Below are positions 43,641-58,107 of a DNA stretch of 64,000 nucleotides, piece by piece. Under the pieces are notes generated by a model. That model was not told the DNA's origin, searched no databases, and saw nothing but the letters and a program-made list of their open reading frames with translations. Position 1 is the stretch's first letter. Every line of letters starts with the position of its first letter. The DNA lies in NCBI GenBank assembly GCA_965224485.1, contig CBDCZH010000018.1, positions 43,603-107,602 of the forward strand. Direction: 5' to 3'. The position numbers and the translations under genes are program-made. This stretch comes from Arcobacteraceae bacterium (GTDB lineage: Bacteria; Campylobacterota; Campylobacteria; Campylobacterales; Arcobacteraceae).

Positions 43641-43716
43641 ATATTTCTTTATTTAATTAATGTTTAAATTTAGAGACGTTCTGTGTTCGCTGTGAGGACT
43701 TATTGTATCTTCTACT

Positions 43717-43995
43717 TTAAGGTTTATTTTTATTAAATATGTTTAAAATTATTATTGAGTTGTTATTTAAATCAACTTCATAAACGATAGTATATTTTTT
43801 AAAGGTCATATCTCTAATGTTTTCATCATTAAAATAATATGATTTTCTAAATTTATATGGATAATGTGGGAGTTCTTTAATTAGTTCAAATAAGTTTTTT
43901 CTAAATTTCTTTGAAGCTGATAATTTGTCTTTAGCTATATAGTCTAAAATTGAGTAAAAATTTATTTCAAATTTTTTATCAAGTTTAATTCTCAT
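43717..43995 (-). CDS. RelE/ParE-family toxin
   Basis: ILDYIAKD..SA, PYKFR, YTIVY; overlaps the upstream antitoxin. Confidence 0.85.
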   Translation of the reverse strand: MRIKLDKKFEINFYSILDYIAKDKLSASKKFRKNLFELIKELPHYPYKFRKSYYFNDENIRDMTFKKYTIVYEVDLNNNSIIILNIFNKNKP

Positions 43996-44242
43996 ATTTT
44001 AATTCTAGTTCTTTTTCAAATTTATTTGTACTATTTTCAAAATCTTCAAATGAAGTTAAATTTCTATTTCCACTTTTTATATCACTTCTTATTTCTTGTA
44101 ATTCTTTTTGTCTTTTATAAAAGTAAGGGTCAACTTCTAAATTTTTATCTTTTGAAATAGTGATATCTTTACTATGGTTATGAACATAACTCATAAAATT
44201 TTGTACATAATTATCTTGAACTTGTACTAAAATTGTTTGCAT
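43985..44242 (-). CDS. Putative antitoxin
   Basis: Small protein translationally coupled upstream of the toxin. Confidence 0.7.
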   Translation of the reverse strand: MQTILVQVQDNYVQNFMSYVHNHSKDITISKDKNLEVDPYFYKRQKELQEIRSDIKSGNRNLTSFEDFENSTNKFEKELELKYEN

Positions 44243-44451
44243 AACATTCCACCTATATTTTATTTATACACTATTATATCAAAACTAAAGTGATTTTACT
44301 TTAGTTTTAAAGTTAGAATTAGGTTTGATTACACCTAGTCGTATTCCCTTGTATCAGTCAGTTTCAATTTAATTAATTTTTTTCTTGATAAATACAAATA
44401 CAATTTGCACTATGCTTGTCAAAACAATCTCATCTTTACCTTAGCAAAGTT

Positions 44452-44505
44452 TTATAACGTTTAATTTCAGCAAGGCTCTGCATTTGTTTCAAGATTTTGT
44501 TATGT
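44452..44505 (-). other. Truncated or interrupted attC-like site
   Basis: Minus strand ACATAAC-AAAATCTTGAAACAAAT...GTTATAA; starts like the attC at 50097-50228 but lacks a complementary right arm. Confidence 0.35.
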
Positions 44506-44518
44506 GTTTTACTTAGTT

Positions 44519-44646
44519 AAAATAAAGTTGACTGTGCCTTTTATTCTTTATTAATAATTTAGTATCGTGTCCCCGGAATTTAAAAATAAAGTTGACTGTG
44601 CCTTTTATGCTTTACTAATAATTTAGTATCGTGTCCCAGAAATTAA
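44519..44646 (+). repeat. Tandem direct repeat, 2 x 64 bp
   Basis: AAAATAAAGTTGACTGTGCCTTTTAT...TAATAATTTAGTATCGTGTCCC repeated with period 64. Confidence 0.9.
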
Positions 44647-44669
44647 TATTTTTATTAGCACTATTTTTA

Positions 44670-45665
44670 TCAAATACTATCTTCTAATATTTTTTGAAAT
44701 TCTTCTTTATTTGGTAAAACAGTTAGATATTTACTTGCATAAATTTGATTATTATCTTCTGGTAATGTCATCTCTACTAAACCATTACTTTTATCTTTAC
44801 ATAAAATTATACCTACAGTTGGGTTTTCATTTTCAAGTTTTTCATACCTATCAAAATAATTTACATACATCATCATTTGACCTATATCTTGATGTTTTAA
44901 CTTACCAATTTTTAAATCTATGACTATAAAAGATTTTAATATACGATTATAAAAAACTAAATCAACTGCAAAATGTTCTTCATCTATAGTAATTCTTTTT
45001 TGTCTTGCTACAAATGTAAAACCTTTTCCAAGTTCTAATAAAAAATGTTCCAACTTGTCAATAAGTTTTTGTTCAAGTTCACTTTCACTATAACTATTTT
45101 CTACACTTAAACCAACAAACTCTAGTATATAAGGGTCTTTTATCATATCACCAACAGATTCTATAATTTGCCCTTTAGATGACAACTCTTTAACTTTTGA
45201 TTTATCACGGCTTAGCTGTAATCTTTCATAAATACCACTATTAAATTGTCTTTTAAGTTCTCTGAGTGTCCAAGAGTTATCTACTGATTCTATCTCATAG
45301 AAATCTCTTTCACTAATATTTGAGATTCTTGATAAAAATATATAATGAGACCAACTTAAATTGAATTTGTGAGACAGTGTCTCGCTTTTTGAAAATGCAT
45401 TATAAAATAGTCTCATGTTTTTTAAATTATCTTCGGAATAACCTTTTCCAAATTCTTTGGTAAGTTCTACAGATAAGTTTTTCAATAATGCTTTTCCATA
45501 TTTAGCACGACTTTTTCCATCTTGTTCTTCTTCAACTATCATCTTACCTATTTGCCAATAGGTTTGTGTCATAGTTATATTTATAGTGCTATATACTTTG
45601 TTTTTAGCATTTTGTAGGAGTGTTTTTATTTCATTGTAAAAATTTGATTGTTTTTTTAAATTCAT
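44670..45665 (-). CDS. yhcG: YhcG/DUF1016 PDDEXK nuclease-domain protein
   Basis: YWQIGK.IVEEEQ.G..RA.YG, LSWSHY, KDPYILEF, FLLELGKGFTFVARQ, DLKIGK, GQM..Y. Confidence 0.9.
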   Translation of the reverse strand: MNLKKQSNFYNEIKTLLQNAKNKVYSTINITMTQTYWQIGKMIVEEEQDGKSRAKYGKALLKNLSVELTKEFGKGYSEDNLKNMRLFYNAFSKSETLSHKFNLSWSHYIFLSRISNISERDFYEIESVDNSWTLRELKRQFNSGIYERLQLSRDKSKVKELSSKGQIIESVGDMIKDPYILEFVGLSVENSYSESELEQKLIDKLEHFLLELGKGFTFVARQKRITIDEEHFAVDLVFYNRILKSFIVIDLKIGKLKHQDIGQMMMYVNYFDRYEKLENENPTVGIILCKDKSNGLVEMTLPEDNNQIYASKYLTVLPNKEEFQKILEDSI

Positions 45666-45749
45666 TACTTATTATACCTTTATTTCAAATCTAATTTATT
45701 TATGATATTAATTATTGAACCATAATATATTATCTCTTCTATAACTATT

Positions 45750-45962
45750 TTAATAGTAAATTTTATTTTGTAGACTTTTAAAATATTCTAGGAGTCTTAA
45801 TTTTTGTTTATATTTCATAGATAAATCTTGACCTAATTTTAAATTCCATTGGTCAAGTATTACATCAACACCATTATGTCTTAATCTTGTTGCTACTTGC
45901 ATCACCCAACTTTTGTGTTCATCATTATCATGTGAATATGATATAAAAACTTGTGATGACAT
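45750..45962 (-). pseudogene. Truncated TIR/SEFIR-domain gene
   Basis: VFISYSHD..EHKSWV..A..LR..GVDVILDQW..GQDL, then similarity ends abruptly. Confidence 0.75.
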
Positions 45963-46020
45963 AAAACTTCTTTTTTCTGTAAACATTACTATTTGTTGTA
46001 TTTGGGTTTAATCAGTCACT

Positions 46021-46310
46021 TTGTTAGTTTATACTTTAATTTACTTAAAAATAAGAACTCATTAAAATATGCTCTACTCGTATGATTATTTGTACTAAAG
46101 AGTACAAATTACCATACTCCTATTTCTTAACGTGCAAACAGTTATGGCTGGGTTACGTAAATAAAGAAAAACTTACTCACGAGGTTTGCCTTGTGCTAAA
46201 GAGCACAAGTTTTCCTTCTTCCTCTGCTAAAGCAGATATAGTTCGAGCACATATTCATTCAAGGAATAAAAGATAAGTGTATTTCCTGCCCTAGGGGTGT
46301 GTAACTTCCA
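46021..46310 (+). repeat. Structured non-coding repeat, partial rearranged copy A
   Basis: Shares TTGTTAGTTTATAC, CAGTTATGGCTGGGTTACG, ACTTACTCACGAGGTTTGCCTTGTGCTAAAGAGCACAAGTTTTCC and TCTGCTAAAGCAGATAT with copies at 51.35-55.08 kb. Confidence 0.85.
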
Positions 46311-46368
46311 ATTAATGGTGCCAGTCCCGAATGGCACAGCAAGGCTCTAAATTAATGGTGCCAGTCCC
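46310..46368 (+). repeat. Direct repeat AATTAATGGTGCCAGTCCC x2 (period 40)
   Basis: 19 bp exact repeat; the first copy forms the hairpin GTGCCA-gtcccgaa-TGGCAC and the second supplies the lmuB stop codon. Confidence 0.85.
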
Positions 46369-48136
46369 CTTTTTCCTTAGTGATACCTAAAAACATTTTT
46401 TGTTCAAAACCTTCAAAAGTAGCTAACCATTCTTTATCATTTACATCACATTCATATCGATAAGATGTTGTTGAATATATAAGTTGTGCATTATAGAGGT
46501 TACATAATTTCTTTAATTCACCAAGAAACTCGCTAAGATCACTAAGGTCTAACTCTTGTTGTCTTGGAGTATCAAAAATTAAAAACCTAAGGCTATTCCT
46601 AGAAGAATTTTTTAAATATACTTCAAATATTGTTGCATGAATTGCTAATACAACCCTTATTAGCGTACTTCCTTGTATTTGACTAAGTTTTTCCCCATTA
46701 AATGTTGGTTTAAAATCATTATCTATTTCAATATTCCTTGATACATTTTTTGTTTTTAATATATCTAACCAAAAAATTAGTTTTTCTTTCAGTTGAGTCT
46801 TAATTTCATATAATTTAGTATTAATATCATTTTTACCACCAGTCAAAGAAGCTATACTATCTTGAACTCTTTCTCTTTCTTTTACTCTTTTTGTTAATTT
46901 TTTCTTTTCTTCAAAAAAATACTCATAGGATTGTTTAGTTTGCTCTAATTGAAAAACTTCTTTAAATAATTCATTTAAACCATTTACTATTCTCTTTGAT
47001 TCTTGAGTATCATTCATTTGGCTAACTTCGCCCTCAATTCTTTTGATATCATCTATTAAATTCTCTTTTGATTCATTTAACATCATGATTTCTTTTTGAA
47101 AGATAAAGGAATTCCGCTGCATATCTTTTATTTGATCTTTTAAATATAATAAATTCTTCCCATATGATTCTGAACTTTTCATAAATAAACCGCAGTTTTG
47201 AGAGTAACATATTTCATTAAAAGATTGAAATATTCTTTTAGACTCTTCATTTAAACTTAAAGTATTAATTTCTAATTCAATTTCTATTTTAATCTTCTCA
47301 AAACTATCTATCCTAGTTTCTAATTCCAAAATATTATTATCTATAAATTGAATTTTTTTCTGTTTTGTAAAAATTAGATTATCTAAGTTAATTATTAGAT
47401 CATTTTTAAGTGTTCTTGAATTACTAAGGTTGTCTATTTGGCACGTATGATTTTCTATATTTTTAATAATATCTAAATGATCTTTTTCAAAATCACCAGT
47501 TGAGGAGCTCATACTATCAATTAATTTCTTTGATTTTACAATTTTTTTATCTAGTAAGTCTTGTTGTGATTTCAAATTAAATATTTCTTTTTTTTGATCA
47601 AATGAATGCTTTGGAAGAATATCAAATATTAATCTTATCATTTCACTATATTGGTCTTTTATAAATACTGAAGGCGCTTTATATAAGTTACTATATCCAG
47701 TATCTTGATTTAAAAATAATAAAGGTAATAATGTTGAGAGATAAGGATGAGTAGGTTCTTTACCAATTGAGATAAGTGTGGGATATTTTATATTCAATAA
47801 TTCAAATAAAAAAGAAGTCAATTTTTCTTCCATATAAAAAACATCCCTTTTATTTTTACTATAGAGTTCTACATGAAATTCTGTACAAATTTTTCTTTTT
47901 AATTGAATTTCTTCTTTATTATGTTCAAAATACAAATTCACATATTCACAATTTTGGTAAATGTCTTCTCTAAACTTAGCACTGTAACCTAACGCATATA
48001 CAATAAATTGTACTATAGGAGTTTTTCCAGATCCATTAAAAGCAAAAATTTGTGTAATATCATTACCAAATATTAATTCTTCTGATTGCCATCCTTTACT
48101 ACTAGATGATTCTATAAATAATTTAGTTAATTTCAT
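46352..48136 (-). CDS. lmuB: Lamassu SMC-like ABC ATPase
   Basis: Walker A FNGSGKT, coiled coil with central C-x4-C, QGSTLIR signature, Walker B FLIFDTPRQQE. Confidence 0.8.
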   Translation of the reverse strand: MKLTKLFIESSSSKGWQSEELIFGNDITQIFAFNGSGKTPIVQFIVYALGYSAKFREDIYQNCEYVNLYFEHNKEEIQLKRKICTEFHVELYSKNKRDVFYMEEKLTSFLFELLNIKYPTLISIGKEPTHPYLSTLLPLLFLNQDTGYSNLYKAPSVFIKDQYSEMIRLIFDILPKHSFDQKKEIFNLKSQQDLLDKKIVKSKKLIDSMSSSTGDFEKDHLDIIKNIENHTCQIDNLSNSRTLKNDLIINLDNLIFTKQKKIQFIDNNILELETRIDSFEKIKIEIELEINTLSLNEESKRIFQSFNEICYSQNCGLFMKSSESYGKNLLYLKDQIKDMQRNSFIFQKEIMMLNESKENLIDDIKRIEGEVSQMNDTQESKRIVNGLNELFKEVFQLEQTKQSYEYFFEEKKKLTKRVKERERVQDSIASLTGGKNDINTKLYEIKTQLKEKLIFWLDILKTKNVSRNIEIDNDFKPTFNGEKLSQIQGSTLIRVVLAIHATIFEVYLKNSSRNSLRFLIFDTPRQQELDLSDLSEFLGELKKLCNLYNAQLIYSTTSYRYECDVNDKEWLATFEGFEQKMFLGITKEKGDWHH

Positions 48137-48608
48137 AAAGCTCCAATTCAATTTTCTTTTCGGTATTAATATCTCTATATTTTCTATTAATTACATTTAA
48201 CGTGTATGATAAATCATTTTCTTTAGATAATGTATAATCAATCACTTTTTTTCCAAGATCAGTTGATATTATCTTTTGTTTTTTATTATCAATAGTTATT
48301 AAATTTGAGATTTCCAAAAAATTCAATGCTGTAATTGTTCTTATTCGTAGATTCGCAGACCAACCCAAGTGTTGAGAAGAACCTTTAAATCCCTTCATGC
48401 TTAACTCTAAGCACTCACCAATTAATTGACCAAGAGAATCAACTTGAGGTTTTTTTCTATTCTTTGCCAAAAGTAATATAACTATAGATAAAAATGGTAA
48501 TTGAAATAATGCTTCATTATTTAATAAAATTTCTTTACTTGTATTATTTATAGTTGCTATCTTAATATCTTTTTTTCGAACTGACTTTAACATTTTTTCA
48601 AAATTCAC
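48123..48608 (-). CDS. lmuC: Lamassu / ABC-three-component middle component
   Basis: 161 aa gene overlapping both the effector and ATPase genes. Confidence 0.7.
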   Translation of the reverse strand: MNFEKMLKSVRKKDIKIATINNTSKEILLNNEALFQLPFLSIVILLLAKNRKKPQVDSLGQLIGECLELSMKGFKGSSQHLGWSANLRIRTITALNFLEISNLITIDNKKQKIISTDLGKKVIDYTLSKENDLSYTLNVINRKYRDINTEKKIELELYEIN

Positions 48609-49776
48609 TGAGATAACCTCCGTACAAGAGATGATAATGCACCACCTAATAATAATTCATCAGTAATAACTTTTATTTTTATAGTTTTATTTAATTTTTC
48701 AATTTCTTCAAGTAATTTTTCAAATGAAATAGTATTTAATTCTGAACTATTTGAAACTGCCCTGTCTAATTTAGTTAAGATCTTATTTAATTCAAAGGGA
48801 GGAATAATATGTCTATTAGTTCTTAGCCATGTATCCCAATCAGTTTTAACCTTAGAACAAAATTCAAGTATCTCTGGAGACGCGACAGATAATGTTCTTT
48901 GAAGTATAGAGGCATTCTTAATAGCTTGTTCATCTCCTCCTTTTAATAATTCATTATAAACATTTTGAGAAATAGATAATATCTCGAGTATATCTTTTAA
49001 ATTAATTCCACACGCATCATCTAATTCTTCTTTAGATAACTCAGAAATTTTCACTCTTGATTTTTTCTCAATTAGTGCTATTAAACTATCAGTAATTTCT
49101 TTTGATTCTAAATAATGTAAATCTATTTCACTATATTTCAAAATCTTAGTTCTTATTTTTTCATAAAAATCTTCAGCATTATCTTCCAATAAATAAACAT
49201 TATTAGTATCAAAACATAATTTTTTTAAATGCTCTTTAATCTCATCCTCAAGGATAACTTTTCCCTTAGGAAGAAAACACTCATTAAACTTTTCAATTAA
49301 TAACAAAGTAAATTTATTTTCAAACAGTTCTTTATCTATATCATCATTTATATTTTCAACATGGTCATGAATATTTATATTTGTTAAAAAAGTTATTGAG
49401 GAACAAGAAGATTTAAAGTTTACAGTATGTAGCAACATTTTACCAACAAAACTATCTTTTATTTTTTTAATTTCTGTTTTTTCTACAGCTACTTTTTTTC
49501 TTCTTGTATATAATCCAAAAATATCAGAAATACTCCACAAATGATTTTTTTTTGATTTAGTTTTAACTTGATAGAAATTATATTTATATTCCTTATCAAT
49601 TTTTCTCTAACAACAAAATCGTCGTGATAATCACAATAGACCATATCAACATTATTATTTTCAAGTATTTTGACAACTTCTAATGAAGCTGCTCTAAATT
49701 GAGCATGAAACCTTTTTATGGTTTCTCTTCCCACTTCTTCTCTAGCCTTAATATCGTGTATTTCAATGTTATTCAT
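48605..49776 (-). CDS. lmuA: Lamassu effector with Cap4/DUF4297-like dsDNA nuclease domain (one missing A near 49600)
   Basis: RE..GR.T..RF..Q, CDYHDDFV; adding one A restores YNFYQVKTK (PD-(D/E)xK-type) and joins both ORFs into about 390 aa. Confidence 0.78.
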
Positions 49777-50096
49777 TAATACTCCATAAAATTTACTAAC
49801 TTTAAATAATTATTTTTTAACTTAATTAAATGTATAAAGTATCCAACTTGTGTCACAATCTCCGTTATAAAGAACAGAATTGTGTCTTTGTATATTTTAT
49901 TTTAAAATTTTTTAAAATTTTCAAAAGAAAAAAAGTTATTTGATAATCAAATCCTTTTAAATTTTCTACACCACTCATTAAATACTCTTATACTTTTTAT
50001 ATATAAACCTAAATTTATTATTTGATAATAAATTTAGTATTATGTCTCCATTATTTTTGTGGTCTTAATAACTTTGTATCCAATACCCCTTTGTGA

Positions 50097-50228
50097 ATCT
50101 AACGACCGAACTGAAGGACAAGTGGGCGAAACGACTTGACAGTTTGGTCTTTATATTTTTTTATTCGAGATTTAAAAGCTCAAATTTTTCGCCCTTTACA
50201 CTTATTCGTTTCCTGTGTTTTGTTATAC
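50097..50228 (-). other. Integron attC-like recombination site (132 bp)
   Basis: Minus strand: R'' GTATAAC 7 nt after the stop codon, internal GGGCGAAA/TTTCGCCC and AAGTG/CACTT arms, R' GTTAGAT. Confidence 0.7.
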
Positions 50229-50235
50229 ATATTGA

Positions 50236-50983
50236 TTAATTGGAAAAACTGGGATCAAGAAGTTTATTTCCAGATTCTATTAGACTACCAATAAAACTTG
50301 AAATTCCATTGTAATATCTTTGCATTTCATAATCAATTTTTTGTAGATTTTCACCTTGGAGGGTAGAAAAGAAAGTAAATTCAGCTAATCGTGAACTAAC
50401 AATATCCCCATGCTTTATCGTATTATTAAGAACACGACATTCGTCAGCATCAGAATATCCATCTAATGTGTTAAGTATTATTGACTTTGTTTCGAATAGT
50501 GAAATTAGTTGATCCCAACGATAGGGAACGTTAATATTTTGAATGGGGTGTCCCAGTTTGTAGATGTTCAATATTAGCATAAACCTTTCCCATAAACTTT
50601 TCTGCAGTTGCCCATAAACCTATCACACTAAATTCATCAGAAAATCTTTTGCAACGATCTATGACAGCATCGTGAGTCATAAAATGACTATTAGTTTGGG
50701 ATGCTTGATACGTGAAAAATTCTTTTTCTTCCTCTCCTACAACATTAACTTTGTCTTTTTTCTTTTTTTCTTGAAATAATTGAAATTGTATATCTAAATT
50801 ATCATTTTTTTTATTTAAATCATTGTATATGATTTGATGTAATCGAGCAAGGTCATGCAAATGCCAATCTAATTCAGATTGTAAGATTGATAGTGGACCA
50901 GCAATGTTTGTCATATAAGAAATTGGCATATTTTCATTTCCAATTTGCTGTTCAATAGAGAGTAATGGCATGTATGTTGTCAT
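50236..50983 (-). CDS. Cassette-borne hypothetical protein with HEPN-like motif (one extra C near 50546)
   Basis: Removing one C joins two ORFs (TGTPIQNINVPYRW) into about 248 aa; CRVLNNTIKH resembles a HEPN R-x-H motif. Confidence 0.6.
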
Positions 50984-51019
50984 CAAAGTTCCTTGATTAT
51001 TATAAATTTTGAATTTGTA

Positions 51020-51260
51020 GTATAACTACTTATTAGTAGAACACTTTATACCTATTAACACAAATATTCAGTATTAATAGACATAATTTATGTACCTATA
51101 ATAATGAGAAATAGTGATATTTTGAATATTATGTTCTTTTTTCAATAATTTTCATTAAAATTGATGTCCATTTAAAGCTAAAATACTTGTTATTTGGACA
51201 AAAATGTCTACTAATTATTGAATTTTGTGTTAAAAGAACATAATGTTCTTTTTAAAACTA
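51020..51260 (-). other. attI-like region with palindromic repeats
   Basis: Core GTTATAC (51020-51026) is the exact reverse complement of the cassette R''; nearby TAGTAGAACA/TAATAGACAT/ATGTCTACTA motifs and the palindrome AAAAGAACAT-A-ATGTTCTTTT. Confidence 0.55.
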
Positions 51261-51349
51261 AAGTTTAAATTTACACTTTAATAATAGTATACAAGAAACG
51301 TGTCACAGTTTGTGTCACAAAAAAGAATAAAAGGATTAGATACTGAACT

Positions 51350-51985
51350 TTTATAATTATTAGTTTACATATTAAAATAGTTTGAAATAACTGGTGTTTG
51401 CTCTTGTAAACTTTCAGTTCCCGCTTTCTTACTTTTGTATTGACAAAAAGTAAGCAAAAACAACTACGTTTCGGAGGTCTTCGACTACCTAAAGTTTTTT
51501 TATTTTCTTGCTTAGCCCTAAAACTCGTTAAAATATGCTCCCAGCATATTTTTTCACACTCAGACAGTTATGGCTGGGTTACGCAATAAAATAAAAAAAC
51601 TTTAGCTCCTGCAAATGTAGCAATCAACGGAATAATATTTTGTCTACTTCGTAGATATAGTTTTAATACATATTTAGAAATTTATTTTTATATTGGGCAT
51701 TTTGATTACTTGCTCTACCCCTGCCTTTGAGGAATCTAGAGTTTGAGAGTTTATTTTGCCTGCAAGCAGGATTTTGTCACTGCGTTCTAGCATCGGTAAT
51801 AAGGAAGTAAAGGAAACTTGTTTTAGCATAAGGAAAACTTTACGCGTCATGTTTGGAACCCGGAGGGCTTCAGCAACCGGCAGTCGACTTTTTTGTTTCT
51901 TTTTGATCGATAAAAAAAGATGCCTGAGCATAGCGATACAATCCTGTAAGGGAAAAAAGCGCGAAGGTTCACCTTTGTAAGAGTT
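51350..51985 (+). repeat. Structured non-coding repeat, full copy B (~635 bp)
   Basis: Colinear with copies D and E; many hairpins; ends GGTTCACCTTTGTAAGAG. Confidence 0.92.
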
Positions 51986-52008
51986 CTAAAAGTCAAAACT
52001 ATATTAGG

Positions 52009-52099
52009 TTTTATAATTGTTAGTTTATACTTTAAAATAGTTTGAAATAATTGGCTTTTGCTCTTGTTGTAAACTTTCAGTTCCCGCTTTCTTACTTTT
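52009..52099 (+). repeat. Structured non-coding repeat, 5' fragment copy C
   Basis: TAGTTTATAC...TTTGCTCTTG...AAACTTTCAGTTCCCGCTTTCTTACTTTT, cut at the first hairpin. Confidence 0.88.
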
Positions 52100-52381
52100 A
52101 TGTGGCACATTTTTACTTTGTACTACTGGTGTATTTTAGCATTGCATTTAACAATATCCATACAATATTTTTGAAGAAGGGGAAGAAGAGTTTTTTTCTC
52201 AATTTAATTGAATATATGGGTATTGGAAATTTTACAAAATATTTTATGACTATACGATTAAAATACAATAAGGATATAGGACTTTCAAATGAAGAAATTC
52301 CAAATAGTGATTTCTTATAAAAGAGTGAATTCCAATAAATATGCTATAATTAGGAATACATTCCTAAAAAAGGACTAAAAT

Positions 52382-53647
52382 ATGGATTCTATTTTACTTG
52401 AAGACAATGCTCATTGGATAAATGATGAGAGTTATAATGATTTTGTATCTAGAGAAGCAATAGAAAAAGCTATGTCATATATAGATACAAAAGAGATAAT
52501 TGCTATTATTGGTGGTAGACGAGTGGGGAAAAGTACTTTGGCTAAGTTGATGATACGAAATTTACTTAAAACTGTAGATGCAAAAAATATTTTTTTTATC
52601 AATTTAGAAAAACTAAGTTTTATACCGTATAAAAACGACCCAAATTATTTAGATAAAATATACAATCAGTACCTAAAAATAGCAAATCCAGATTTAAATG
52701 AAAAGATATATTTTTTTATAGATGAAATTCAGATATTTGATAACTGGGAAGTATTTATAAAGTCAAAATATGAAAATAGTAATATTAAGTTTATTATTAC
52801 TGGCTCAAACTCATCATTACTTACTTCAAATTATGCTACTGTTTTAACAGGAAGAGTATTAAAGTTACGGCTATATAGTTTTAATTTTCGAGAATTTTTG
52901 ACTTATAAATCTATTGATTTTTCATCAAAATTAAAAATAGTACAGAATACTGTGAATATAAAACGGGCATTTGATGAGTATCTTATTTGGGGTGGATATT
53001 TCTCTGTTATTTCGACACAAGATATACAAGTAAAAAAAGAATTATTGAAAAATATTGCAGAAGATATTATTTTAAAAGATATTGTACCTAGGTATAAGAT
53101 TAAGAATTCTAGTGAGATACGAGATATGTTTTTTTATATTGTATCCAATGCAACTACACTTGTAAACTATTCTACATTGGCAAATAAACTAAATCTTGAT
53201 GCTAAAACTGTTAAAGAATATATCAATTATTTTGAAGATAATTTTTTGATAACTAGAATATCAAATTATCATCATAAACTGACACAACAAATTAGATCAA
53301 GTAAAAAGATATATTTAAACGATAATGGTTTTTTGAACTTAGGTATAAATCTAAGTAAAAACAACGGAACCTATTTAGAAAATTTGCTGTTTAATAGCTT
53401 GTACCAAAAAGATGAAAAACTTACATATTTAAAAGACACTTATGAAATTGATTTTTTTAGTGAAAATATTTTGTATCAAGTTTCTTACGATATTAGCGAT
53501 GACAAAACAAAAAAGAGAGAGTTTAATGCTTTTAAATATTTTCAGTTCAATGATACTATACAAAATAAACTCATAAGCTATGATACAAATGAGCAAATAG
53601 AAAATATAGAAGTGATAAGTTATGATAAATTTATTTTAGATGTGTAA
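52382..53647 (+). CDS. AAA_14 ATPase with DUF4143 domain
   Basis: GGRRVGKS, FIDEIQ, ITGSNS, LTGR, WGGY, KIYLNDNG, LEN, EIDF. Confidence 0.88.
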   Translation: MDSILLEDNAHWINDESYNDFVSREAIEKAMSYIDTKEIIAIIGGRRVGKSTLAKLMIRNLLKTVDAKNIFFINLEKLSFIPYKNDPNYLDKIYNQYLKIANPDLNEKIYFFIDEIQIFDNWEVFIKSKYENSNIKFIITGSNSSLLTSNYATVLTGRVLKLRLYSFNFREFLTYKSIDFSSKLKIVQNTVNIKRAFDEYLIWGGYFSVISTQDIQVKKELLKNIAEDIILKDIVPRYKIKNSSEIRDMFFYIVSNATTLVNYSTLANKLNLDAKTVKEYINYFEDNFLITRISNYHHKLTQQIRSSKKIYLNDNGFLNLGINLSKNNGTYLENLLFNSLYQKDEKLTYLKDTYEIDFFSENILYQVSYDISDDKTKKREFNAFKYFQFNDTIQNKLISYDTNEQIENIEVISYDKFILDV

Positions 53648-53734
53648 AACACATGGTAAATATCACAGGTACAATCATAAAGTAATGATTGTATAATTTG
53701 ACAAATGTATCTATATGTTGTGGTATGTATCTAC

Positions 53735-53920
53735 AATATACTAATATTAGATAAAATTATAGAACTTAAAAATGGTAATTTTACTAATGATAAAGCCTTA
53801 AAAGGTAGACATAAAAATAAATTTAGAAAAAGAGCAGATAATTATAGAATAGTATATTTAAGAGAAAATGATATTTTATTAATTACATTAATTAGAATAG
53901 TTCATAGAAAAGAGTTCTAA
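53735..53920 (+). pseudogene. 5'-truncated RelE-family toxin remnant
   Basis: KALKG...FRKR..NYRIVY...LITLIRIVHRKE; no intact N-terminus or antitoxin; the stop lies in the repeat junction sequence. Confidence 0.65.
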
Positions 53921-53923
53921 GAG

Positions 53924-54583
53924 TTTTATATTTATCAGTTTATACATTAAAATAGTTTGAAATAACTGGCTTTTGCTCTTGTAAACTTCCAGTTCCCGCT
54001 CTTTTCTTCTTTTGCCAAAAAGAAGAAACAAGAAAGTGTCTACGGTTTCGGAGGTCTTCGACTACCTAAAGTTTTTTTATTGATTTACTTAAAAATAAAA
54101 CTCACTAAAACATGCCTCAAGGCATCTTTTTTCACGCTCTAACAGTTATTTTTGGGTTACGTAAAGAAATAAAAAAACTTACTCACGAGGTTTGCCTTGT
54201 GCTAAAGAGCACAAGTTTTCCCTATTCCCCTGCAAATGTAGCAATCAACGGAATAATATTTTGGCTACTTCGTAGATATAGTTTTAATACATATTTAGAA
54301 ATTTATTTTTATATTGGGCATTTTGATTACTTGCTCTACTCCTGCCTTTGAGGAAGCTAGAGTTTGAGAGTTTATTTTCGGTAACAAGCGAAGCACGTTT
54401 TAGCGAGTTCTGTAGAGTAGAGAAACAATGGAAAACTTATGCTCTTTAGCATAAGGCAAACTTTGTGCGTTAATTCTTGAACTCTAGGCACCCGGAGGGC
54501 TTCATCAACCGGCAGTCGACTTTTTTGTTTCTTTTTGATCGACAAAAAAAGAAAAGAGCGCGAAGGTTCACCTTTGTAAGAGT
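53924..54583 (+). repeat. Structured non-coding repeat, full copy D (~660 bp)
   Basis: Colinear with copy B; contains an internal inverted pair of CTTRTGCT-AAAG-AGCAYAAG hairpins. Confidence 0.92.
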
Positions 54584-55083
54584 TTTATATTTGTTAGTTT
54601 ACACCTTAAAGTACTTTTAAATAACTGGCTTTTGCTCTTGTAAACTTCCAGTTCCCGCTTTCTTACTTTTGTATTGACAAAAAGTAAGCAAAAACAACTA
54701 CGGCTTCATCGGCCTAAAGGCTACCTAAATATTTTTTATTGATTTACTTAAAAATATAACTTCCTAAAACATGCCTTAGGGCATCTTTATTAACGGTCAA
54801 ACAGAAATTTTTGGGCTACGCAAATCAATAAAAAATATTTAGCTCTTGCAGATGTAGCAATCAACGGAATAATCTTTTGTCTGCTAAAGCAGATATTGTT
54901 TGAAGACATATTTATAAATTTATTTTTATATTGGGCATTTTGATTACTTGCTCTTTTCCTGCCTTTGTGGAAGCTAGAGTTTGAGAGTTTCTTTTGTTAA
55001 AAAAGAAGTAAATAAAACTTGTGCTCTTTAGCATAAGGAAAACTTTACTTGTAATGTTTGCACCAATAGGTTCACCTTTGTAA
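54584..55083 (+). repeat. Structured non-coding repeat, copy E (~500 bp, tandem to D, internal 3' deletion)
   Basis: Head-to-tail with D; compensatory changes in stems; ends GGTTCACCTTTGTAA. Confidence 0.9.
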
Positions 55084-55101
55084 TACTTCTTATATTTAAA
55101 A

Positions 55102-56352
55102 TTATGACAAAAGTTTGATTTGACTATCTATGTCACTCTTATACTTTTGAATATCACTATCTTCAAAACCTAAAGTTTCTGCACGTTCTTTAAATGTTGA
55201 AGCAACTTTAATACACTCATTAATGATCGTATTCGCAAGGGTAGATTTAATAGAATATGAACTTGCAATTTTTAAAATATCATCTTTAGTGATTTTTAAA
55301 GCCTTTCCTCCAATAGTAGTAATATGTTGTTTTGCAAGACCTTTTGAATAAGTAATGTCATATGCAGGTGATAAAGACCACTTACCTGATTCATGCATTA
55401 AAAATGCAAAGTTCTTAGCGTGATCATCAAAGTTAAAAACTAATACATTTAAAACCATTCTTTTAAATAGTTCTTCAATATCTTCTTGGCTTTTACATAT
55501 TTCTTTTGTTAGCATTAATAACTGCTCATATGTGCTAACTTGAGTAATTGAAATATCAATATGCATTAATGCTGCTGCTGTTGACATATGAATTTTTTTA
55601 TCATCTTTTGTTCTATCAAATCTCTTTACTAATAAATGAGAAGATTCATTTTCTTCTATTAACTCAAAGTCTGCTGTTTGAATGCCTACTTCTTTTGCCA
55701 TACTCATCATAATAAACTCTAATTTTGTAAGTCCAATACTTCCTACACCTTCATAAATTTCATCAAATTTTATTATTGCTCTTATATACCCTTCTTCTAA
55801 CTTTTGTGTATTTATTTTAATTTTACTAGTTCTCTTATTGTATTGCACAAGCATTTTAGGTCTTCCCCCACCTACAGGAGAAACACTATCGAGAATATTC
55901 ATTAATTCTTGTATTGAGGAATCTTTATTGTTAATACTATTTTTCATTTTTTCATAGGCATCTTTTGCATTGATTACATCTGCTTTTAAAATATCTTCAT
56001 TATGTTCTTTTGGAAGATACTCTATTGCTCCCATACCTCTATTTGCAATAAAGCTAAGTTTATGAAGCAGGGTGATTTCATTTTGATTAAAGCCTTGTCT
56101 TTCAAAATATCTATCAATAAAAGCCATTCCATGTCTATCTGGCAAGGAATCAAAAAACACACCAGGCATTCCTTGATATAAAGACTTGTGTTCTTTGTTT
56201 GTAAATAAATAATCTTTTAAAGGAAGTTTTATAGGAGATATTTCAAGTTTATTAGCAATAAAATTTTTATCGTATTGAAAAAATATACTTCCTTTATGCT
56301 CTAAAAGAGTACCTATTTTTTTACCATAAATATATGCATAAATCTCAGTCAT
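55102..56352 (-). CDS. hipA: HipA-family kinase toxin
   Basis: DSLPD, RGMGAIEY, VGGGRPK, LLVKRFDR, NFDDHAKNF, LSPAYD. Confidence 0.92.
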   Translation of the reverse strand: MTEIYAYIYGKKIGTLLEHKGSIFFQYDKNFIANKLEISPIKLPLKDYLFTNKEHKSLYQGMPGVFFDSLPDRHGMAFIDRYFERQGFNQNEITLLHKLSFIANRGMGAIEYLPKEHNEDILKADVINAKDAYEKMKNSINNKDSSIQELMNILDSVSPVGGGRPKMLVQYNKRTSKIKINTQKLEEGYIRAIIKFDEIYEGVGSIGLTKLEFIMMSMAKEVGIQTADFELIEENESSHLLVKRFDRTKDDKKIHMSTAAALMHIDISITQVSTYEQLLMLTKEICKSQEDIEELFKRMVLNVLVFNFDDHAKNFAFLMHESGKWSLSPAYDITYSKGLAKQHITTIGGKALKITKDDILKIASSYSIKSTLANTIINECIKVASTFKERAETLGFEDSDIQKYKSDIDSQIKLLS

Positions 56353-56656
56353 TTTTACTCCTTCTAACTCTTTTTTTAACTTTGTTAATTTTTGCTTTTC
56401 TAATTTCATCTAAGGAAGTGAACTCTTCAACTTTTACTAATTCTTCAAGTTTTGAGCTTAAATCTAATGCAAATAATAAGTTTATAATATTTTCAAATTT
56501 TGTATTTTTTGTATCCATGAAAGAACGATATGCACTTGCAGATAAACCAGAAGCTTTATATAAATCTTTTTGAGTCATATTTTTTCTAATTCTCTCTTTT
56601 TCAATCATAAATACAAATTGTTCCATGATCTCTAATGATGTGAAAAATTGAAACAC
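56345..56656 (-). CDS. HipB-like XRE HTH antitoxin
   Basis: ERIRKNMTQKDL...SGLS; overlaps the hipA start. Confidence 0.8.
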   Translation of the reverse strand: MFQFFTSLEIMEQFVFMIEKERIRKNMTQKDLYKASGLSASAYRSFMDTKNTKFENIINLLFALDLSSKLEELVKVEEFTSLDEIRKAKINKVKKRVRRSKND

Positions 56657-56925
56657 AATTATTCCTTTTTAGATAATTAAGCTATATTATTAGTCATAAT
56701 TATTTGTTTCTAAATAATTATAACATATATTAATTTCTTTTTCTATAAGTTTTAAATAAAGTGATAATAATTAATTATAGTTTTTGCTTTTAAATATTTG
56801 TCATATATTTATGTTAATTGTGCTTTTCCATTAGCAAATGACAAGTTTTCCTCAATTATTTCAATAAACTAGAAGAAACTAAGCTTCTTAATAATATAAT
56901 TTTAATTATTATTTAAAGGAATATA

Positions 56926-57213
56926 ATGGAATTAGTAAGAGTTTATGCACCTCCTGGTGTATATGGTCCTGAAACAAAAATGAATAAAGCAAATTGTGGA
57001 AGAAAAGCACATTATAAAGAAGTTTCTGTATCATCAGAAGTTAGAATAAAATCAAATGTTATGATAAAAATACATCTACCTACAAGTTTTCAACCTATTG
57101 AATTTATAGGACCTGGAACGAAAGAATTTTTAGTTACAGAAGAGTGTTTCCATATTGGATTTAGTGCTAAAAGTATTGGTCCTGGACAAATTTTAAGATT
57201 TGAGGTGAAATAG
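56926..57213 (+). CDS. Hypothetical protein
   Basis: RBS AAGGA, 95 aa, first of three co-oriented genes. Confidence 0.65.
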   Translation: MELVRVYAPPGVYGPETKMNKANCGRKAHYKEVSVSSEVRIKSNVMIKIHLPTSFQPIEFIGPGTKEFLVTEECFHIGFSAKSIGPGQILRFEVK

Positions 57214-57215
57214 TT

Positions 57216-57602
57216 ATGAAGTTTTTATTAATATTAACATTATTTATAGTTTCACTATCTGCAAGAATAGATAATAGATTTTTTGTTATTAATGATTCTA
57301 TGACATTAGAGTGTAAGGATGTCTTAAAAATAAACAAGCTTAGTAATAAAATGGTTCAAATAGTATATACAAATTCTGGACGAAAAAAGATAAACGATTT
57401 TTCAAGTAAGAATTTAAATAAAGAATTTAGTTTAATTGCTGAGAATACAGTAATATTTTTAGATATGAAAATAACAAAACCTTTAGCTGCTAATCATATT
57501 ACAATACCTTCCATTGAATTCTATTCAAAAGAAGGAAAGATAGATAAGTTTATAAATAGCTTTAAACATTGTAAGAATCTTTTATCTACAAAATTTAAAT
57601 AA
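57216..57602 (+). CDS. Secreted hypothetical protein, possibly SecDF P1-head-like
   Basis: Signal peptide; VQIVYTNSGRKKINDFSSKNLNKEFSLI resembles the P1 head pattern. Confidence 0.5.
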   Translation: MKFLLILTLFIVSLSARIDNRFFVINDSMTLECKDVLKINKLSNKMVQIVYTNSGRKKINDFSSKNLNKEFSLIAENTVIFLDMKITKPLAANHITIPSIEFYSKEGKIDKFINSFKHCKNLLSTKFK

Positions 57603-57624
57603 TAAATAATTATATGGAGAAACT

Positions 57625-58107
57625 ATGATTCAAGTTACATTTGGATTAACAATGTTTTTATCATTGTTGATTCCTTCTCATTTCTTAATACAGTTATTAC
57701 TAGGTGATATGTATGCAGTTTTATTTTCATCTACTATATCTTCTTTATCAATTCTAATTAGCTTTGGAATAACTCTATTTATTCCTTTTATTATAAGCAT
57801 TATTTTTGTAAAAAAATCAAATTTGATAAGTAGACTTCCTTTCCCCATCCCTAGTCAAAATTTGATGCTCTTAGGTAGTTTCTTTATTCTACTACCATCT
57901 TTTTTGCAAATAATATTATTAATGATTGATAAAATTTATAATTTAACTCTAGTACATACTTATTTTGTATCAATTAAAGGTATGAGTAATATATTATTCT
58001 TTGTTAATTATATAGCTAAAGTGTTATTGATAGTAGGAGTATTTCAACTGTTATTGTCAGTTAAACAAAATAGTAGATATTTATATTGGGATAATACTGA
58101 ACTATAA
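57625..58107 (+). CDS. Hypothetical membrane protein
   Basis: RBS GGAG, four hydrophobic helices. Confidence 0.65.
   Translation: MIQVTFGLTMFLSLLIPSHFLIQLLLGDMYAVLFSSTISSLSILISFGITLFIPFIISIIFVKKSNLISRLPFPIPSQNLMLLGSFFILLPSFLQIILLMIDKIYNLTLVHTYFVSIKGMSNILFFVNYIAKVLLIVGVFQLLLSVKQNSRYLYWDNTEL

Follow-up and report, generated by a model that had tools for sequence, protein, structure and literature searches.

The stretch of DNA analysed here, which we call the window, comprises 64,000 nucleotides of an Arcobacteraceae bacterium and corresponds to contig C18:43603-107602 of its genome assembly (G000; 2.79 Mb in 24 contigs, 27% GC). At ~43.6-58.5 kb the window holds an island of defence and toxin-antitoxin genes, and between these genes lie several copies of a non-coding element of 0.5-0.65 kb. 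An earlier examination, hereafter the sequence-only reading, had described five copies in one orientation, two pairs of them head-to-tail, and had proposed that the element is a large structured non-coding RNA (ncRNA) or a non-autonomous element acting as folded single-stranded DNA (ssDNA). The explanation that we favor, with a probability of about one half, is a lineage-specific and very large composite repeat of the REP/REPIN, ERIC or Correia kind. Such a repeat would be non-autonomous and mostly sedentary, would fold in single-stranded form (probably as RNA), and would act both as a seam for recombination and as a site where insertion sequences (IS) of the IS110 family land.

The copies in the window were located by a repeat search (positions 44000-58000) and a profile search (coordinates on contig C18 minus 43602), and the core units inside them with R2, a covariance model of the rod-like domain with 167 positions and 58 pairs:

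46021..46310, + strand, partial copy, diverged, flanked by a truncated bSEFIR/TIR gene and by the Lamassu operon (profile match 46026-46259, model positions 146-333)
46036-46165, - strand, R2 remnant within this partial copy (22.5 bits)
51347..51995, + strand, full element c1 (profile match 51351-51983, model positions 2-616 of 616)
51456..51624, - strand, left rod-like core unit of c1 (R2, 116.9 bits, E 1.3e-25)
51717..51888, + strand, right rod-like core unit of c1 (R2, 45.9 bits, E 6.8e-9)
52009..52099, + strand, 5' fragment of a further copy, with 5' extension and first hairpins (profile match 52012-52099, model positions 3-87)
53922..54583, + strand, full element c2 (profile match 53926-54582, model positions 2-616; also inverted repeat I2, and alignment)
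54051..54184, - strand, left core unit of c2 (R2, 67.2 bits, model positions 17-149)
54338..54520, + strand, right core unit of c2 (R2, 51.7 bits)
54583..55100, + strand, c3, joined directly to c2 (profile match 54585-55065, model positions 2-517; alignment)
54693..54861, - strand, left core unit of c3 (R2, 86.9 bits)
54955..55078, + strand, degenerate right core unit of c3 (R2, 21.6 bits, E 0.0038)

Both searches recovered the five copies where the sequence-only reading had placed them, all on the + strand. The head-to-tail pairs were found as described: c2 and c3 abut, and the fragment at 52009..52099, which also appears in repeat families D4 and D6, begins 28 nt after c1. Read from its 5' end, c1 consists of a 5' extension (~51347-51400), left hairpins, the left unit, an AT-rich centre, the right unit, right hairpins, a 3' terminal hairpin and a 3' extension. 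In the alignment, c2 carries an extra 43-nt hairpin in its left arm and the mirror of this hairpin in its right arm, and c3 has lost most of its right half.

By BLAST and by covariance model, the family proved far bigger than the five copies of the window. A BLAST search of the source genome with c2 returned 100 matching pieces at E ≤ 0.001, and a search with a profile built from first-round matches gave 100 matches, counting both strands. Classified by model coverage, the copies in this genome comprise 9 full, 20 left-half and 7 right-half copies along with short end fragments, clustered on ten contigs. R2 found 51 core units in the genome (E ≤ 0.001) and seven in the window (E ≤ 1). We ruled out an assembly artefact, because the adjacent copies c2 and c3 are only ~76% identical and because the family is present in several single-contig genomes. 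The proposal of a multi-copy, non-autonomous element is supported, including its claim that no open reading frame (ORF) is conserved: in an alignment of 34 copies, ORFs opening at any given start differ in length and sequence.

These 34 copies represent four genera (8 from the source genome, 24 from a second genus of Arcobacter sp. relatives, and 2 from two further genera), and we used their alignment to assess the claim that stems covary between copies. The stem pairs quoted in the sequence-only reading are all present in the alignment of the window copies. They include GGTC-TTC-GACT vs GGCC-TAAA-GGCT, TCTAC/GTAGA vs TCTGC/GCAGA, the ATATGCT/ATGCC hairpin, the long CTAAAG...CTTTAG hairpin, and AGCCCTAA/TTATGGCT vs AAAAATAA/TTATTTTT. 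A structure of 139 pairs in 22 helices was computed on the + strand and compared with 500 shuffles and with controls in which partner columns were slid by one to three positions. The observed structure was 91.5% paired, compared to 83.7 ± 0.3 in the shuffles; 54 pairs were changed on both sides (shuffled 37.0 ± 2.9), 325 cells carried double changes (shuffled 95.6 ± 8.8), and the covariation score was 0.247 (shuffled 0.121). None of the 500 shuffles reached the observed pairing, both-side changes, double-change cells or covariation score, and one of 500 did so for further pair types, although such controls overstate independence, since the copies are related and the cells are not independent events. 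The slid controls gave 44-52% pairing and scores of 0.06-0.09. In a separate RNAalifold analysis of 14 copies, 94 pairs were predicted on the + strand (-48.4 kcal/mol), of which 45 showed compensatory double changes, and 82 on the - strand (-37.4 kcal/mol), of which 37 showed double changes. These results place the structure beyond chance and support the view that the element keeps its fold rather than its sequence. Between orthologous copies, some stems differ as whole "alleles" that are shared with other copies, which indicates exchange between copies in addition to compensatory mutation.

The anatomy of the element is that of an imperfect palindrome centred near model position 325, as the self-match of the profile in reverse orientation (model positions 52-598) shows. 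Two inverted rod-like units of ~170 nt each face away from the AT-rich centre, which spans 62 nt in the second genus and is longer (about 100-115 nt) in the source genome; accessory hairpins and terminal inverted repeats complete the element. Every left unit matched by R2 is on the - strand, and every right unit on the +. Alignment with the other genera showed that the conserved core spans CTCTTG(T/A)A... to ...T(T/A)CA(A/T)GAG, which are the terminal inverted repeats, and these are conserved as CTCTTGAAG... and ...CTTCATGAG in the 24 copies of the second genus. In the source genome the core bears species-specific extensions of ~55 nt at the 5' side and ~25 nt at the 3' side, and copies there end in CTCTTGTAAAC... 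and ...TTTGTAAGAG; in two genomes of the same genus the copies begin at model position 51. Inside each terminus lies a small, strongly covarying hairpin, followed by a hairpin of the CTTACTTTT...AAAAGTAAG type (CTTAC...GTAAG) and then by the ~170-nt rod. Variants of the end hairpin are AAGGT-TCA-ACCTT, AAGAT-TCA-ATCTT, GACC-TTCA-GGT, GACT-GCTA-AGTC and GAGG-TTTA-CCTC. The alignments also contain small hairpin insertions of ~23, 33 and 43 nt, which some copies have and others lack, at mirrored places of the left or right arm. Those of ~33 nt and ~23 nt, found in either orientation, were observed at 51919-51952 of the window and at loci L097, L103-L106 and L113-L115; they behave like tiny mobile or slippage-generated modules.

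Relatives of the element were detected by BLAST in 40 of 151 Arcobacteraceae genomes, distributed over 10 of 22 genera. An exact-pattern scan of named genomes found 10 places, in Arcobacter sp. or in Epsilonproteobacteria metagenome-assembled genomes. Seven of the eight genomes of the second genus harbor many copies of 515-580 bp, amounting to dozens per genome. A search with R2 in 144 genomes from 12 other families of the class returned no units, under stricter filters that found units in only one of six genomes of the own family. The genes flanking the copies are unrelated between loci and range from housekeeping to restriction and toxin-antitoxin genes; copies in the other genera sit between housekeeping genes. 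Of 11 loci in other genera, about 7 had a tandem, 2 a convergent and 1-2 a divergent gene arrangement, which argues against a terminator-like bias. For three pairs of orthologous loci in different species, the element is 79%, 84% and 93% identical, compared to 67-89% for the homologous flanks, and the differences are concentrated in stems, where they are compensated.

The choice between RNA and ssDNA was approached through the folding strand. Calculated with RNA energies, the + strand folds better in all ten source-genome copies and, with a mean difference of 4.6 kcal/mol, in 21 of the 24 second-genus copies, whereas with DNA energies it does so in only 14 of these 24. The fold of c1 has a z-score of -2.97 on the + strand vs -0.79 on the - strand, and the right half alone folds better on the + strand in 34/34 copies, by 11 kcal/mol on average. 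When the two core domains are read outwards from the centre, the outward strand is the more stable in 34/34 right and 22/34 left units and carries more G than C in both. The alignment fold of the right domain scores -74.3 on the + strand vs -59.7 on the - strand, with 14 pairs found only on the + strand that hold 169 G.U cells; for the left domain the values are -47.2 and -52.2, respectively. One right-domain helix (pairs 540-549/588-601) contains five positions at which G.U is the commonest pair and at which all variation is between wobble and Watson-Crick pairs. Left and right units folded together in one (gappy) alignment gave no clear strand preference. The strand and G.U signals thus favor RNA, without deciding whether this would be a single long RNA of the + strand or a pair of transcripts directed outwards. 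Of the alternative "ncRNA or folded ssDNA" put forward by the sequence-only reading, the structured element itself is upheld, with RNA as the probable one of the two forms.

This evidence bears first on a possible though less probable explanation, in which the copies are genes of a structured ncRNA family with a cellular or anti-invader role, producing either one + strand RNA of ~520-650 nt or units of ~170-230 nt transcribed outwards from a central bidirectional promoter; the copies in the DNA would have arisen by gene duplication. The strong covariation over 22 helices, the helix that varies only between wobble and Watson-Crick pairs, loops of the UAAA, UUCG and GAAA type, the stability of the outward strand, most pronounced in the right domain, and its G excess all speak for such genes. 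The conservation of orthologous copies at or above the level of coding flanks agrees with them as well, and all 20 left-half and 7 right-half copies of the source genome retain the centre (model positions ~300-335), where the bidirectional promoter would lie. A -10-like TAAAAT box occurs in the 5' extension of three source-genome copies. A consensus promoter scan found 30 promoter-like sites compared to 21.6 ± 4.5 expected; the promoter signal in the centre is weak, and the matches of a terminator scan were the element's own hairpins, with no terminator following the units. The left unit has almost no strand preference, the orientation relative to genes follows no rule (upstream genes in the source genome are co-oriented in five cases vs divergent in four), and the better-folding strand lies head-on to replication in all 17 copies of two genomes described below, an arrangement uncommon among expressed genes. 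A set of fifty copies that includes fragments, tandem arrays and copies interrupted by an IS resembles repeat DNA rather than a gene family, and a palindrome over the whole length requires an origin at the DNA level.

The position of the copies in the gene island was assessed next to its gene content, which confirmed the claim of a defence location: Lamassu, PDC-S01, PDC-S02 and a bSEFIR fragment were identified together with ParE and HipA. From its left end, the island comprises an attC-bracketed ParE-type pair, PDC-S02, the bSEFIR fragment, the partial copy and Lamassu, followed by c1 with the adjacent fragment, PDC-S01, a ParE-like ORF, c2 and c3, and HipA with a helix-turn-helix (HTH) gene. 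Further features of its left part are:

43655-43708, attC-like site (18.5 bits)
43717-43995, ParE-type toxin gene
43985-44242, small ORF upstream of the ParE-type toxin
44452-44505, attC-like site (32 bits)
45750-45986, bSEFIR/TIR gene reduced to 78 aa, adjoining the partial copy and Lamassu
46352-48151, - strand, LmuB
48123-48608, - strand, LmuC
48605-49540 and 49489-49776, - strand, LmuA in two ORFs, the split suggesting a frameshift

The window copies thus lie at the seams between modules, separating bSEFIR, Lamassu, PDC-S01 with the ParE-like ORF, and HipA. Elsewhere in the source genome, copies separate HepT/MNT, a restriction-modification pair, ParE, HipBA and MazEF, between conserved housekeeping genes. 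Homology between species breaks at the edge of the element: in the orthologous loci L103 and L118 the left flank is 23% identical, the element 84% and the right flank 88%. A break of synteny at the element edge was also found in L033/L091, and L033/L090 indicates that halves of the element can be replaced independently of one another. These breaks and replacements demonstrate recombination at the copies.

The island is a decayed array of integron-type cassettes with real attC sites. The ParE pair at 43655-44505, which follows a SpoU methylase gene, is an integron-type cassette without a nearby integrase and is in this respect CALIN-like. An attC model (R1) built from 21 sites detected 11 attC-like sites in the source genome, mostly in element-bearing islands, and none of the 11 inside an element. 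The attC sites of Arcobacteraceae are ordinary (65-70 bp, of the ATAAC...GTTAT form). Integron integrases over the TIGR02249 cut-off occur in 41 of the 151 family genomes, namely in 13/40 genomes with the element vs 28/111 without it. The only integron integrase gene of the source genome (intI; C19:179207-179911, L058:7208-7912) scores 279 bits on TIGR02249 and starts at position 88 of the 315 of the profile; it lacks the first ~87 residues and lies directly after a truncated copy of the element. On contig C15, a YefM-YoeB pair beside a full copy is an attC-bounded cassette. This cassette adjoins the element in three of five genus members, whereas the remaining two have it bounded by attC sites without the element, one of these two contigs ending ~120 bp past it. 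As an observation on the integrase locus, the DNA upstream of intI contains about ten small ORFs, none matching Pfam and most of them oriented opposite to intI, with no attC-type repeat among them.

An IS110-family element of 1.27-1.31 kb, encoding a transposase of 323 aa, interrupts the element three times in the source genome (L059:6207-7477 on contig C12, L063:8098-9366 on C23 and L056:7238-8543 on C19). All three insertions follow ...TTTTAGTGAGTT^ in a single orientation relative to the outward strand of the unit, one of them in a right unit and two in left units. Use of one site in left and right units indicates that the two halves of the element are equivalent units. The most conserved stretch of the unit resembles a programmed IS110 target.

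We propose that the element, which encodes no protein, would have spread in the past as DNA with the help of an enzyme supplied in trans, and that it would now be largely sedentary, with copies kept at orthologous sites in different species. Its hairpins may be held by selection on a single-stranded form, most probably RNA from the transcribed element, and its modules may be swapped between copies by recombination. The copies would provide dispersed homology, and integron-type cassettes, toxin-antitoxin pairs and defence systems are joined, swapped and truncated at them. One conserved site of the unit in addition serves IS110 as a landing pad.

Several observations weigh against this proposal. 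No empty site was recovered among same-genus genomes, which are fragmented and only 76-81% identical in housekeeping genes, and at the locus tested in the second genus every genome carried the element or half of it. About 8/24 second-genus copies have TA dinucleotides on both sides and about 12/24 have one on the left, compared to an expected ~13% per site, but these are indistinguishable from an extension of the inverted repeats, TA being self-complementary. Candidate mobilising enzymes were not found: a DDE_3/IS630-type gene is present in none of five genomes, a Y1 HUH transposase (PF01797) is absent from G000, and the sole reverse transcriptase of G000 is encoded on contig C16, which has no copies. 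Orthologous copies at least as conserved as flanking coding DNA fit a function useful to the host better than junk. The strand signal is uneven, the left half folding better on the + strand in only 10/34 copies, and the near-symmetry of the left domain weakens the case for RNA. With 0.5-0.65 kb and 22 helices, the element is far larger than any described REP, ERIC or Correia repeat. Finally, the orientation bias along the replichores, described below, is fully accounted for by none of the readings. In the search for an autonomous partner IS, none with matching ends was found; the IS110 and IS30-like genes near copies have inserted into the element or beside it and share no ends with it. Seven tyrosine recombinases are encoded in the source genome, of which the truncated intI alone adjoins a copy.

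The orientation bias was observed in two single-contig genomes (G017 and G081) with dnaA at base ~300-850. All near-full-length copies listed for them (12 in one genome, 5 in the other) change strand with the half of the chromosome, from - in the first to + in the second, so that the better-folding strand is opposite the leading strand in 17/17 copies, several of which are orthologous and not independent. In the source genome 28/44 copies are oriented likewise, as judged by local GC skew. This bias suggests that the element is linked to replication or that one of its strands is under selection. Elements that act as ssDNA in connection with replication, as well as integron arrays, show such orientation bias.

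The bias is one reason to consider a rather unlikely explanation, namely that the element works as folded ssDNA whose hairpins are sites for a recombinase or transposase, in the manner of attC/IntI, REPIN/RAYT or IS200/IS605, with copying or exchange coupled to the replication fork. The palindromic build, the covarying hairpins that are also found on the - strand, and the sharing of islands with attC cassettes would suit this explanation. It is opposed by the lack of an HUH gene in the source genome and by the integrase counts given above, which do not track the element. A search with the element profile in five 20-kb stretches beside integrase genes gave no match, with attC-type repeats present in three of the five. 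The G.U-rich helices would moreover have G.T mismatches in DNA, and DNA energies reveal no strand difference. We regard as similarly doubtful a broader proposal that draws on both RNA and ssDNA: the ~170-nt rods may constitute a new class of host-maintained modules, which would be docking and exchange sites for RNA-guided IS110 recombinases and for swaps of defence, toxin-antitoxin and integron cassettes, in parallel with attC/IntI and independent of it, and would be either transcribed outwards or folded on one DNA strand at the fork.

It is very improbable that the element is itself part of the integron system, as a giant attC site or as a cassette without an ORF multiplied by IntI. The tandem head-to-tail copies with junctions at G|TT, the attC-bounded cassette around the ParE pair and the truncated intI beside one copy prompted this comparison. 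An attC or giant attC was rejected, the element having neither the defining ATAAC/GTTAT boxes nor the length of attC sites, and the two models failing to cross-match in either direction. Copies in other genera lie between housekeeping genes, the element does not track IntI across the family genomes, and the copy beside intI destroys this gene rather than serving it. Least probable of all is that the element represents a type I toxin-antitoxin locus (hok/sok or Ldr/Rdl kind), in which a folded mRNA encoding a tiny toxic peptide, and an antisense RNA, would be repeated in tandem. The size of ~0.5 kb, the tandem arrangement, the pairing of 5' and 3' ends (helices 1 and 3) and the setting among toxin-antitoxin genes might suggest such a locus, but it was rejected because neither strand of the 34 copies has an ORF of conserved length or sequence. 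Among ORFs of at least 14 aa with a common start column, sequences differ and lengths range from 14 to 83 aa; the most regular of them, of 16 aa and present in 22 copies of a single genus, is not hydrophobic and has lost its ATG in G000. The long direct repeats of E. coli share the size, tandem arrangement and heavy folding of the element.

The element was compared with the known families that it most resembles. Like the element, REP, BIME and REPIN sequences are high-copy intergenic palindromes that form larger hairpins as inverted pairs, are long kept at orthologous sites, are targets of the IS110 family and act in single-stranded form. REP units are however only 20-40 nt and REPINs ~100 nt long, and both are GC-rich, whereas the element is AT-rich, with units of ~170 nt and a whole of 520-650 nt. 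A REP/REPIN-RAYT system proper was rejected: the inverted pairing is present, but the units are of the wrong size and composition, and the source genome, which is 92% complete, has no PF01797 match. Correia (NEMIS/CREE of Neisseria) and ERIC/IRU elements resemble the element in being non-autonomous, with terminal inverted repeats; their ends are flanked by TA, they have no known host transposase, they form hairpins when transcribed and they lie beside variable genes. They are simple hairpins of 100-155 bp, and the element is four to five times larger, multi-domain and covarying; TA lies on both sides of about 8/24 second-genus copies, as a putative duplication at most. Integron attC sites, cassettes and CALINs are likewise imperfect palindromes that fold as single strands and border cassettes among toxin-antitoxin and defence genes, but attC sites are of 55-140 bp and carry boxes that the element lacks. 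The NIME arrays of Neisseria (RS units framed by dRS3), compared by description only, are mosaic non-coding repeats at the borders of exchangeable blocks and are hotspots of recombination and insertion, as the element appears to be; they consist of short direct and inverted units without a conserved multi-helix fold.

Large structured RNAs were considered in the same way. OLE, ROOL, GOLLD and the HRC candidates share with the element a length of several hundred nucleotides, many covarying helices and no fixed gene neighbourhood, but OLE, ROOL and GOLLD are neither palindromic nor present in fifty copies. No named family was assigned by Rfam 15: the whole window gave no match at gathering cut-offs (including group I/II introns, HEARO, OLE, ROOL and GOLLD), a 10-kb region searched at E ≤ 10 gave only two chance matches (21 bits, against cut-offs of 171 and 40), and a copy from a relative gave only ten chance matches of 9-18 bits. 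A blastn search with 11-base words found no match in 72,556 plasmid or 50,697 phage records. In the accessible portions of the literature on Arcobacter repeats, inverted-repeat elements, integrons and small RNAs, no description of the element was found. Among the Arcobacter-confined intergenic candidates of Stav et al. (2019; PMC6429828) are HRC-4, HRC-5 and unnamed motifs whose gene context "varies", HRC-4 and HRC-5 deriving from intergenic regions of 1.5 kb and 0.65 kb in Arcobacter sp. L. An overlap of the element with HRC-4 or HRC-5 is possible, the comparison having been made by description and not by sequence.

If the composite-repeat explanation is correct, the element would exceed, in size and in elaborateness of folding, every interspersed repeat so far seen in bacteria, and the ~50 units per genome would shape where defence and toxin-antitoxin modules join in Arcobacteraceae. 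It would offer a concrete case of repeat DNA organising defence islands and decaying an integron, a natural conserved target for a bridge-type IS110 recombinase, and a candidate for a new RNA fold, with covariation in 22 helices. In genome annotation, the element would explain many "empty" intergenic regions of 0.5 kb and many assembly breaks in this family. Even a dead repeat would be a useful marker of genome rearrangement.

Several smaller repeats were observed in the vicinity of the copies. At least five copies are preceded, at a distance of 25-30 nt, by GTGTCACAGTTTGTGTCACAAAAAAG, a direct repeat of GTGTCACA that looks like a putative protein-binding site; it was seen at 51300-51325 of the window and in the 5' flanks of copies on contigs C10, C13, C15 and C19. 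In the second genus, ATAAAACTACATTTT and its variants adjoin the ends of the element on either side and in either orientation (L038, L097, L102, L103, L110 and L118) and may represent a separate small repeat family. Between the partial copy and the end of lmuB, AATTAATGGTGCCAGTCCC is present twice within ~50 bp (window 46300-46370). A 64-bp unit containing AATAATTTAGTATCGTGTCCCCGGAATT forms two tandem copies at 44519-44645 of the window, with a third, diverged copy at 50022-50056, and a motif similar to this unit flanks a copy of the element on contig C12.

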